Shown here: in pieces, positions 7,568-8,119 of the stretch | Layout of the letters: the number at the start of each line of letters is the position of its first letter | Numbering within the stretch: position 1 is the stretch's first letter | Sequence record: PQ529420 | From: Escherichia phage Eryne | Direction: 5' to 3' (one strand) | DNA: 64,000 nt | Notes under the pieces: model-generated | Database searches by the model: none | Told to the model about the DNA's origin: nothing | Seen by the model: only the letters and a program-made list of their open reading frames with translations | Made by a program: the position numbers and the translations under genes

Positions 7568-8119
7568 ATGCAAAACACCGATCTGACTTGGATAGAAGCC
7601 AAAGAAGCAATGTTAAAAGGCAAGCGCGTTAAACATAAATACTTTTGCGAAGGAGAATGGTTTGAAATGCGTAACCGATCCATTGTAGATGAAAAAGGGA
7701 ATGACATGCAACAATGGTTCAAAAATGAAATTTGGCAGGGAACAGGTTGGTCTATAGTTGAAGAGCAGCCTAGCCCAAGCGCACTGTTTAGCCCTATTAT
7801 GTATCGCGTTATCGGTGCTTTAGTTGTTGATCACGGGATTGCAGTGGAAAAAGAATGCTGGGAAGAGGTATCTTTTTTCAACCTGGCTTCTTATGCAAAA
7901 AGCCATATGCACTTGTTTGAAGAAGGGGATGAATTTGTTCTTCGTATGCGATATGGCAAAGAATTCAGATTACCACTTGATAACGATGTAGACACTGTTG
8001 TAAAATGGTTAGCAGAGCATTATGCTTACGATGCAATTTGTGGTCGCAGCTTCGGCAACGAACGCTGGGACATGATTTGTGAAAAATATGATTTTGAGCC
8101 GGAATACGGAGTTTTATAA
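7568..8119 (+). CDS. protein with Tad2-like (DUF2829-like) N-terminal domain plus extra C-terminal domain (tentative)
   Basis: Start at MQNTDLTWIEAKEAMLKGKRVKHKYF...GWSIVEE; pattern resembles DUF2829 (F.EAL..LK.GKKV.R..W ... W.IVE). Confidence 0.45.
   Translation: MQNTDLTWIEAKEAMLKGKRVKHKYFCEGEWFEMRNRSIVDEKGNDMQQWFKNEIWQGTGWSIVEEQPSPSALFSPIMYRVIGALVVDHGIAVEKECWEEVSFFNLASYAKSHMHLFEEGDEFVLRMRYGKEFRLPLDNDVDTVVKWLAEHYAYDAICGRSFGNERWDMICEKYDFEPEYGVL

Follow-up and report, generated by a model that had tools for sequence, protein, structure and literature searches.

We analysed the gene at positions 7568-8119 (plus strand) of a 64,000-nt stretch of DNA from Escherichia phage Eryne (PQ529420), which is called here, at its full length, the window. 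The product of this gene is a chimera of two small phage accessory modules, here the N module and the C module, which evolve and move independently, and the two were brought together in the phi92 lineage by an inversion. The open reading frame (ORF) was confirmed by reading the sequence directly: it starts with the ATG at 7568, eight nucleotides after an AGGAG ribosome-binding site (RBS) at 7555-7559 that the phi92 record annotates as well, and it ends with the TAA at 8117-8119. The product, a 21-kDa protein of 183 aa, is 98% identical to Phi92_gp217, annotated as 'conserved hypothetical protein'. In megablast, the region 7000-9000 was a 100% match to Escherichia phage Paula (LR865361), which we take to be Bas63 of the BASEL collection, and a 98.4% match to phi92; both phages belong to Justusliebigvirus, subfamily Stephanstirmvirinae. 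The parts of the gene and the features next to it, in which ESCO13 denotes a Phapecoctavirus, are:

7568..7765, plus strand: N module, aa 1-66, minimal Tad2/DUF2829-fold domain (phrog_3474 family)
7766..7786, plus strand: linker, aa 67-73 (QPSPSAL), delimited by codon-level comparison with ESCO13_00250 and ESCO13_00255
7787..8119, plus strand: C module, aa 74-183 and stop codon (phrog_11295 family)
7449..7567, no strand: divergent intergenic region between the gp216 homologue (minus strand) and the 7568-8119 gene, with a candidate plus-strand promoter
8119..8370, plus strand: downstream gene, gp218 homologue, 83 aa, whose ATG overlaps the stop codon of the 7568-8119 gene (TAATG)
6514..7448, minus strand: homologues of ESCO13_00253, 00252 and 00251, placed by blastn, tblastx and tblastn synteny

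The gene opens a plus-strand block that goes on with homologues of gp218, gp219, gp220, gp221 (an AAA ATPase) and gp222, and 119 nt separate it from the divergent minus-strand gene 7158-7448. A previous description of the locus made from the DNA letters (the sequence-only reading) had placed it first in this block, right after a divergent promoter region, and both coordinates and context were correct. The promoter is a candidate found by eye, with a -35 element TTGACA at 7508-7513, a spacer of 16 nt and a TGc-TAATCT whose -10 element lies at 7530-7535; the -10 is weak, and a consensus promoter scan did not list the candidate at 7508-7535.

The two modules and their distribution

In the PHROGs profiles, residues 1-69 matched phrog_3474 (a profile of 64 positions) and the first 72 positions of phrog_22208, with E-values of 3.5e-26 and 9.4e-27, respectively, and residues 73-182 matched positions 1-109 of the 110 of phrog_11295 (E-value 2.9e-50). 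All the three families are annotated 'unknown function'. These matches, together with the AlphaFold2 (AF2) models described below, bear out the additional C-terminal domain noticed in the sequence-only reading, which folds independently and measures about 110 aa rather than 100.

The distribution of the modules was evaluated by tblastn against 50,697 phage records. The N module was present in 514 of them, nearly always as a stand-alone ORF of 60-70 aa, in T4-like phages of Klebsiella and Citrobacter, Felix-O1-like phages, Chaseviridae, T5-like phages and others; the C module was present in 143, mostly of Stephanstirmvirinae. Both modules together were found in 31 records (87-100% identity), and an unfused C gene, 60-80% identical, in about 87. 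In a search of representatives, the N family comprised 48 clusters at 50% identity, mostly stand-alone proteins of 59-74 aa. The C family has at least 72 clusters of stand-alone proteins of about 105 aa, a few of them with a helical N-terminal extension of about 45 aa. On a 231-kb contig, one C-family gene is part of a long series of small unknown ORFs. The T5-like phage chee158 has a stand-alone N-family gene in its left terminal repeat (L124:2489-2686), and hence two copies per genome; the left terminal repeat of T5 is the pre-early region, transferred in the first step. The gene in this repeat adjoins other small unknown ORFs, and the same was observed in H74 (BD13, two places).

About 12 of the 48 N-family clusters carry varied additions. 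Precisely, we found a basic tail (KGKGHNKLQKRKKK), a 90-aa domain (P0072 and P0116), a tandem duplication (P0090, 175 aa) and, in P0103 (232 aa), an N module at the C terminus behind a 160-aa N-terminal extension; P0090, P0072, P0116 and P0103 had no Pfam match. The phapecoctavirus-like N modules (ESCO13_00250 at L002:3001-3435, P0074, P0080, P0082, P0102 and P0110) have variable tails that all end in a strongly basic KGKGHNKL(Q/K)K(R/G)KKK, the motif being kept and the sequence before it not.

A word-indexed protein search returned the phi92 orthologue only for the full protein and nothing for the N domain alone; artificial N+C chimera queries, used only as a search device, returned C-module relatives and one N-module relative, P0072. 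No second N-module gene and no canonical Tad2 gene was found in the window, and neither PADLOC nor NCBIfam gave a match for the product. The best-scoring match among the representatives, P0073 (5,991 aa, 15 stretches), was rejected because the hidden Markov model (HMM) of the family does not detect it. P0073 is a giant repetitive Thr/Asp-rich adhesin-like protein, and its repeats (...CEGEWSITRTWSLVDDCGN...) mimic the query residues 26-53 (CEGEW...DDCGN). P0078 (521 aa), a junk tandem repeat, was discarded as spurious. In the records labelled Campylobacter phage A150 and C3 (MG065639 and MG065656, 146,366 bp), the C module is the same as in the Justusliebigvirus phages of E. coli (100% identity), and phapecoctavirus-type copies occur in records labelled Pseudomonas phage PsgM04F and Acinetobacter phage ABPW7. 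The hosts given in these labels look doubtful.

Folds and conserved residues

The two modules were modelled separately in AF2; a full-length MAFFT alignment stacked the C-only sequences onto the N domain. For the N module, the model built on 43 relatives had a predicted local distance difference test score (pLDDT) of 87.4 and a predicted template modelling score (pTM) of 0.73. It consists of helix alpha1 (residues 8-16), strands 21-23, 32-35 and 38-41, a short helix (55-58) and a last strand (61-63), and it includes the elements of the Tad2 core fold, which are alpha1, the antiparallel sheet and the C-terminal DW-x-IVE strand. As predicted by this model, the N module clearly has the Tad2/DUF2829 fold.

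The HMM comparisons were weaker. Neither the full protein nor aa 1-71 matched PF11195 directly at E<=10 (curated threshold 25 bits), while the SPO1 Tad2 control scored 85.8 bits. The best N-family relative, SUSP2 gp044, reached 24.9 bits (E 3e-5) against the cut-off of 25, and sub-threshold matches at E<=1 were found in 8 of 20 and in 12 of 43 N-family relatives, among which PF11195 was the sole recurring Pfam family. A canonical Tad2 HMM run with all filters off did not detect the N module, and no significant match came from sequence searches of the PDB with the protein and with the family profiles, SptTad2 appearing only at E 0.5 when the profile of 43 sequences was used. We also compared the N family, profile to profile, with a Tad2 family composed of SPO1 Gp34.65, three PDB sequences and about 73 IMG/VR ORFs. 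The probability was 67.6% when the alignments were small, and 88.7% and 92.2% (E 5.9e-7) when they were larger; the resulting alignment is confident for its first 35 columns only, the remainder having been obtained by global alignment. These comparisons point, weakly but consistently, to a remote homology with the Tad2/DUF2829 family. Of the two computational checks proposed in the sequence-only reading, structure prediction returned the Tad2 fold, and the HMM search against DUF2829 gave no match for the protein itself, only its relatives reaching sub-threshold scores. The DUF2829-like character assigned to the first 85 residues or so thus holds for the fold, given the AF2 model and the 92% of the profile comparison, and fails for the length, which is about 66 residues.

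With the known Tad2 proteins (PF11195: SPO1 Gp34.65, HgmTad2/AcrIIA7, ModTad2, SptTad2) the N module has in common the helix frame ...EA...K.G..V, the aromatic residue after the helix (W25/F26) and the pairs W73/W50 and W85/W61; both are small, phage-encoded and found in accessory or early regions. Tad2 proteins are 85-104 aa long, whereas the N module has 66 aa and is without the beta2-beta3 insertion (SPO1 residues 36-59, HgmTad2 residues 32-72). In fact, strand 32-35 of the model leads straight into strand 38-41, and a gap of about 25 residues (24-26) stands in the alignment opposite SPO1 residues ~37-60. In Tad2 this insertion carries alpha2 and builds, with beta2, the V-shaped dimer of the tetramer (10.1101/2023.05.01.538930), and in the long forms it also builds the cyclic-dinucleotide pocket (PMC10680739). 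The Tad2 motif GWNGKG is YF(C/T)xxE in the N family, W-x2-S-x-T-D is W-F-K-N-E-I in the N module, and the N family has invariant residues of its own (E30, E42, G44, W56, G60). The N module is a distinct, insertion-less family reduced to the Tad2 core.

The contacts of SPO1 Tad2 with glycocyclic ADP-ribose (gcADPR) are W25, N26, I63, T65, D67, H71, W73, S76, T78 and D79 (10.1101/2023.05.01.538930); we verified these residues in the sequence from NC_011421. Their counterparts in the N module are:

SPO1 W25: F26 (F in 61 of 61 N-family sequences)
SPO1 N26: C27 (T, C or S in 53 of 61)
SPO1 I63: V40
SPO1 T65: E42
SPO1 D67: G44
SPO1 H71: Q48
SPO1 W73: W50
SPO1 S76: K52
SPO1 T78: E54
SPO1 D79: I55

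One contact is identical, two are conservative and all the polar ones are substituted. The segment aligned with the GW(25)N(26)GKG loop, K-Y-F26-C27-E-G-E, retains the aromatic residue and has lost the Asn, and W50 alone is retained from the W73-x-x-S76-x-T78-D79 motif and the associated T65, D67 and H71. For the C-terminal half, the residues were mapped on a global or low-mact hhalign alignment with no structural superposition, so this part of the list is less certain than the N-terminal half. The position equivalent to D79 is acidic in 56% of the N-family members, though not in the product of 7568-8119. W25, N26, W73, S76 and D79 were essentially invariant in our sample of canonical Tad2, a count that is not independent, since the sample was retrieved with patterns containing those motifs. 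In HgmTad2, both W21A/N22A and S90A/T92A/D93A abolish gcADPR binding, and the gcADPR site is reported to be conserved in all but ~1% of the Tad2 homologues (PMC10680739).

Among the 61 N-family sequences, the near-invariant residues were A11, G18, F26 (100%), E30 (97%), E42 (93%), G44 (90%), G60 and W61, followed by W56 (79%) and W50 (74%, with F in a further 16%). A11, G18 and W61, common to Tad2 and to the N family, look structural. As for the others, the loop that follows beta1 holds F26 and E30, the turn matching the Tad2 beta3-beta4 loop holds E42 and G44, and W50 and W56 are placed before and inside the short helix, respectively. The elements that form the Tad2 pocket are the loops beta1-beta2 and beta3-beta4, the strand beta4, the loop beta4-alpha3 and the helix alpha3 (10.1101/2023.05.01.538930). 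Because the conserved residues of the N family fall on these elements, a ligand site would seem to have been kept in the same place with a different chemistry.

The C-module model, on 48 relatives, had a pLDDT of 94.9 and a pTM of 0.88, with a helix at 5-18, strands at 23-27, 30-34, 44-48, 51-55 and 61-65, and helices at 70-85 and 94-102. The predicted fold is alpha-beta5-alpha-alpha and contains the alpha-beta5-alpha arrangement of the type III secretion chaperones and of the YbjN proteins. By sequence the C module belongs to neither, having no match in Pfam, NCBIfam or the PDB; its stand-alone homologue ESCO13_00255 had no Pfam match either, and a fold search of BFVD returned only its own uncharacterised family. 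Its identity to the class I type III secretion chaperones (AvrPphF ORF1/ShcF, SpcS, SycT, SigE, CesT-like) and to the YbjN proteins (DR_1245, AmyR) is 6-22%. It differs from both in an extra C-terminal helix and in invariant residues of its own (K-S, R-Y, G-R and W), and, unlike the type III chaperones, it is phage-encoded and without a secretion system context. In full-length numbering, the conserved residues are K111, S112, (H113), R128, Y129 and W167, with G159 and R160 nearly invariant. Most of them are in loops of the model and, as a speculation, would be compatible with an anion-binding site. We looked for a conserved client gene beside the C module and found none: the gp218-like neighbour follows it in close relatives only, including the ESCO13 stand-alone C gene, and is lost in distant ones.

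Origin of the fusion

In ESCO13, from the sister genus Phapecoctavirus, each module is encoded by a gene of its own, and the two genes lie on opposite strands. Residues 1-66 of ESCO13_00250 (144 aa) make up the N module, and an unrelated tail that ends in KGKGHNKLKKGKKK follows; this N module is 59% identical to the one described here and has the same place after the same divergent promoter, with a different 75-aa tail. The C module corresponds to the 112-aa ESCO13_00255 (60% identical), which lies on the opposite strand with an ATG and an RBS of its own; ESCO13_00255 comes fifth in the divergent operon, and a gp218 homologue follows it. Positions 6514-7762 of the window are collinear with an ESCO13 segment made up of genes 253, 252 and 251, the intergenic region and the N module (78% nucleotide identity over 6804-7762). 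The flanks have sides and strands swapped relative to the window: genes 249 and 247 belong to one flank, and genes 255 and 256 with the AAA ATPase to the other. For the ESCO13_00250 tail and genes 254, 248 and 257-259, blastn, tblastx and tblastn found no counterpart in the window.

A collinear centre between swapped flanks indicates an inversion of the central block. This inversion, in the Justusliebigvirus (phi92) lineage, set the N module in frame before the C-module gene; the inverted block consists of the three genes at 6514-7448, the divergent promoter region and the N module, which lost its earlier C-terminal tail. At the junction, the homology to ESCO13_00250 stops at ...GWSIVE and is followed by about 22 nt of new sequence, coding for QPSPSA, without an ESCO13 counterpart. 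The homology to ESCO13_00255 resumes at its first codon, where CTG (7784-7786) replaces the ATG, and the former RBS is gone; the stand-alone C homologues start with MFS. In a Klebsiella relative within Stephanstirmvirinae, a 253-like gene lies directly upstream of a stand-alone C gene in the same direction, which argues that the unfused arrangement is ancestral and the fusion derived.

An internal start at M78, which would yield a free C module, was considered and rejected: no Shine-Dalgarno sequence was found before it, so the C module is expected to be made only within the fusion. Between Paula and KKE7M, the ratio of nonsynonymous to synonymous substitution rates (dN/dS) was 0.27 for the N module and 0.06 for the C module, on small counts (12 and 5 differences, respectively). 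The locus is a clean, datable case of domain fusion through inversion, and this origin is a caution against taking every fusion as a functional coupling.

Possible functions of the fused protein

Tad2-fold proteins are among the most widespread phage counter-defence proteins. Every characterised one is a nucleotide sponge (10.1101/2023.05.01.538930; PMC10680739; PMC12393519), with gcADPR, histidine-ADP-ribose (His-ADPR), cyclic dinucleotides, cyclic CMP and cyclic UMP (cCMP/cUMP) and N7-cyclic ADP-ribose (N7-cADPR) as ligands (PMC10680739; PMC12393519). Fusions are common too: Tad2 is often joined to Acb4 (PF13876) and to Sequestin (PF21825), and the latter fusion led to the discovery of Sequestin as a sponge (10.1101/2025.07.12.664507). 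The sequence-only reading was therefore mistaken in considering an extra domain as unusual in a normally single-domain family, as is also evident from the IMG/VR and N-family fusions. Like Acb4-Tad2 (Pasteurella phage Pm86) and Tad2-Sequestin, the protein studied here combines a Tad2-fold module with a small phage module that also exists stand-alone, as two independently folding domains with a short linker. Its partner, however, is neither PF13876 nor PF21825 (it has no Pfam match), and the chaperone-like fold of this partner is unlike the known sponges. The order of the domains differs as well, since the Tad2 fold is C-terminal in Acb4-Tad2 (judging by the name) and in the extended IMG/VR Tad2 ORFs, and N-terminal here. 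Finally, unlike the published sponge fusions, this one is restricted to one genus and is traceable to an inversion.

Two observations were made on the IMG/VR ORFs. Many of the canonical Tad2 ORFs (L050, L059, L066, L073, L080, L083, L084, L089, L106, L109 and others) have a conserved N-terminal extension of about 65 aa, with the pattern ...YIGTK.I.A.PM.R.EYN.YRGW..P..EN..DEGYLV.Y.DG...SWSPK..FE.AY; the one extension tested had no Pfam match at E<=0.1, and the extension may be the Acb4 partner known from the literature. In L092:355-873, which carries a canonical Tad2-like domain (PF11195, residues 83-171), the segment MKFKQALEEMKKGIPMKLPSWGGYWCWDDEKQ...EEWIP before this domain looks like a second, insertion-less DUF2829-like copy.

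We tentatively favour the explanation that the product is a binder of a small molecule other than gcADPR, in which the C module provides dimerisation or a second site. In this model the promoter used would be the one in the divergent region, expression would probably be early, and the protein would act as a non-enzymatic binder rather than as an enzyme. The N module would sequester a small host-derived molecule, and the chaperone-like C module, whose fold is normally dimeric, would contribute either oligomerisation or another surface for binding. The function that each module has as a stand-alone protein in other phages is probably retained. The suggestion of a non-enzymatic early binder comes from the precedent of the Tad2 fold, from the short length, the phage restriction and the early or accessory sites of the N family, and from its conserved residues on the pocket elements. 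Several points weigh against it. The early expression is deduced from gene position only, and the mapping of the N residues onto the Tad2 pocket depends on an alignment confident for the first 35 columns. The conserved residues of the N family are acidic and aromatic, while the published sponge pockets are mostly positively charged (10.1101/2025.07.12.664507), and they would suit a protein-protein interface just as well. The pocket-forming Tad2 tetramer may not assemble when the alpha2 insertion is missing. Moreover, a fusion made by a rearrangement may be merely tolerated and functionally meaningless, and the substitution counts behind the dN/dS values are small.

The favoured explanation includes a version, unlikely when taken by itself, in which the modules belong to two undescribed sponge families for different immune nucleotides and the one protein blocks two systems, as Acb4-Tad2 and Sequestin-Tad2 do. 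A Tad2 fusion has already revealed a new sponge family (10.1101/2025.07.12.664507), and the Tad2 family is known to have diversified to His-ADPR, cCMP/cUMP and N7-cADPR (PMC12393519). The C family is also short (~105 aa) and phage-restricted, belongs to a fold class that is usually dimeric and has invariant basic or aromatic residues in loops (K111/S112, R128/Y129, R160 and W167). Co-selection of the two modules nevertheless lacks support, because the fusion arose from an inversion in one genus only and outside that genus even the strands of the two genes differ. Slightly less likely again is the broader proposal that both modules are the founders of two undescribed families of phage immune-signal sponges and that the phi92-lineage fusion is a natural two-in-one sponge. 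According to it, the minimal Tad2-fold family would trap a non-gcADPR signal at a putative site made of E30, E42, F26, W50 and W56, and the chaperone-fold family would trap a second signal through its K-S, R-Y and G-R loops.

After the small-molecule binder we rank an inhibitor or adaptor that binds proteins, which we consider doubtful, although less so than the two-sponge proposals. Here the partner of the C module would be a host or phage protein, bound through an extended segment, the Tad2-fold module would be a second protein-interaction or oligomerisation surface, and there would be no small-molecule ligand. The best structural matches of the C module, the class I secretion chaperones (dimers that wrap client peptides) and the YbjN-family regulators, speak for it, as do the acidic and aromatic, not basic, conserved surface of the N family and the many unrelated tails to which the N module is joined (for example KGKGHNKLQKRKKK and the 90-aa domain of P0072 and P0116), which suggest an adaptor. 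Against it stand the low identity to those structural matches, the lack of a conserved neighbouring client gene (the pairing with gp218 being limited to close relatives) and the nucleotide ligands of all the Tad2-fold proteins studied so far. That the product is instead a genuine Tad2, in which an N-module tetramer sequesters 1''-3'/1''-2' gcADPR and perhaps cyclic dinucleotides, blocking Thoeris or the cyclic-oligonucleotide-based antiphage signalling system (CBASS), with the C domain as an accessory, is very improbable. The fold is present, F26 and W50 preserve the aromatic positions of W25 and W73, and the acidic D79 equivalent occurs in more than half of the N family, though not in this protein. 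Yet PF11195 and the canonical Tad2 HMM both miss the N module, N26, S76, T78 and D79 are replaced by C, K, E and I at a site whose mutation costs HgmTad2 its gcADPR binding and which ~99% of Tad2 keep (PMC10680739), and the insertion needed for the V-shaped dimer and the cyclic-dinucleotide pocket is absent. The sequestration of cyclic ADP-ribose signals put forward in the sequence-only reading is hence unsupported. Lowest in the ranking, and largely refuted, is a sequencing or annotation artefact or a decaying, non-functional by-product of the rearrangement. The junction is indeed a rearrangement scar with a novel 22-nt linker, and the N module evolves faster than the C module. Nonetheless, the 183-codon ORF is uninterrupted in 31 independently sequenced phages, its RBS is strong with no internal one before M78, dN/dS is below 1 in both halves and both halves have high-confidence folds.

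We consider therefore the product of 7568-8119 as an interesting candidate binder and not as a recognisable anti-Thoeris protein. The N family is a bare-core Tad2-fold family with a different conserved site; it spans 48 clusters and over 500 phage genomes, and the Pfam model does not see it. In one genus it is fused to a second uncharacterised family, which has more than 70 clusters. The distinctive points of this fusion are its chaperone-fold partner family and an event that can be reconstructed. The proteins of both families are short and easily expressed, and tractable E. coli phages (Paula and phi92) carry them, so the sponge idea is cheap to test; should such tests be negative, the protein would be one of the many phage accessory proteins without an assigned role.

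Some neighbouring genes had features of their own. The gp221 homologue (9028-10155, plus strand) is an AAA ATPase (PF00004, E 1.2e-9) that also matches models of novel STAND NTPases (nSTAND3 above threshold) and, weakly, mad8 and IetA in PADLOC. The gp222 homologue (10230-11423, plus strand, 397 aa) has four CapR homology domain repeats (PF21817, E 1.1e-38), a weak treble-clef zinc-finger match and a T5orf172 domain, an unusual architecture for a gene after an AAA ATPase in the same operon. On the divergent side, the gene 6861-7145 (minus strand) codes for a phage tudor domain (PF24144, E 1.4e-25) and the gene 7158-7448 (minus strand) for a DUF7325 protein with a weak LAGLIDADG-like match. In the phi92 record the tudor gene is only a 51-aa ORF with 'weak prodigal statistics', which may be due to a frameshift or a mis-annotation in phi92.

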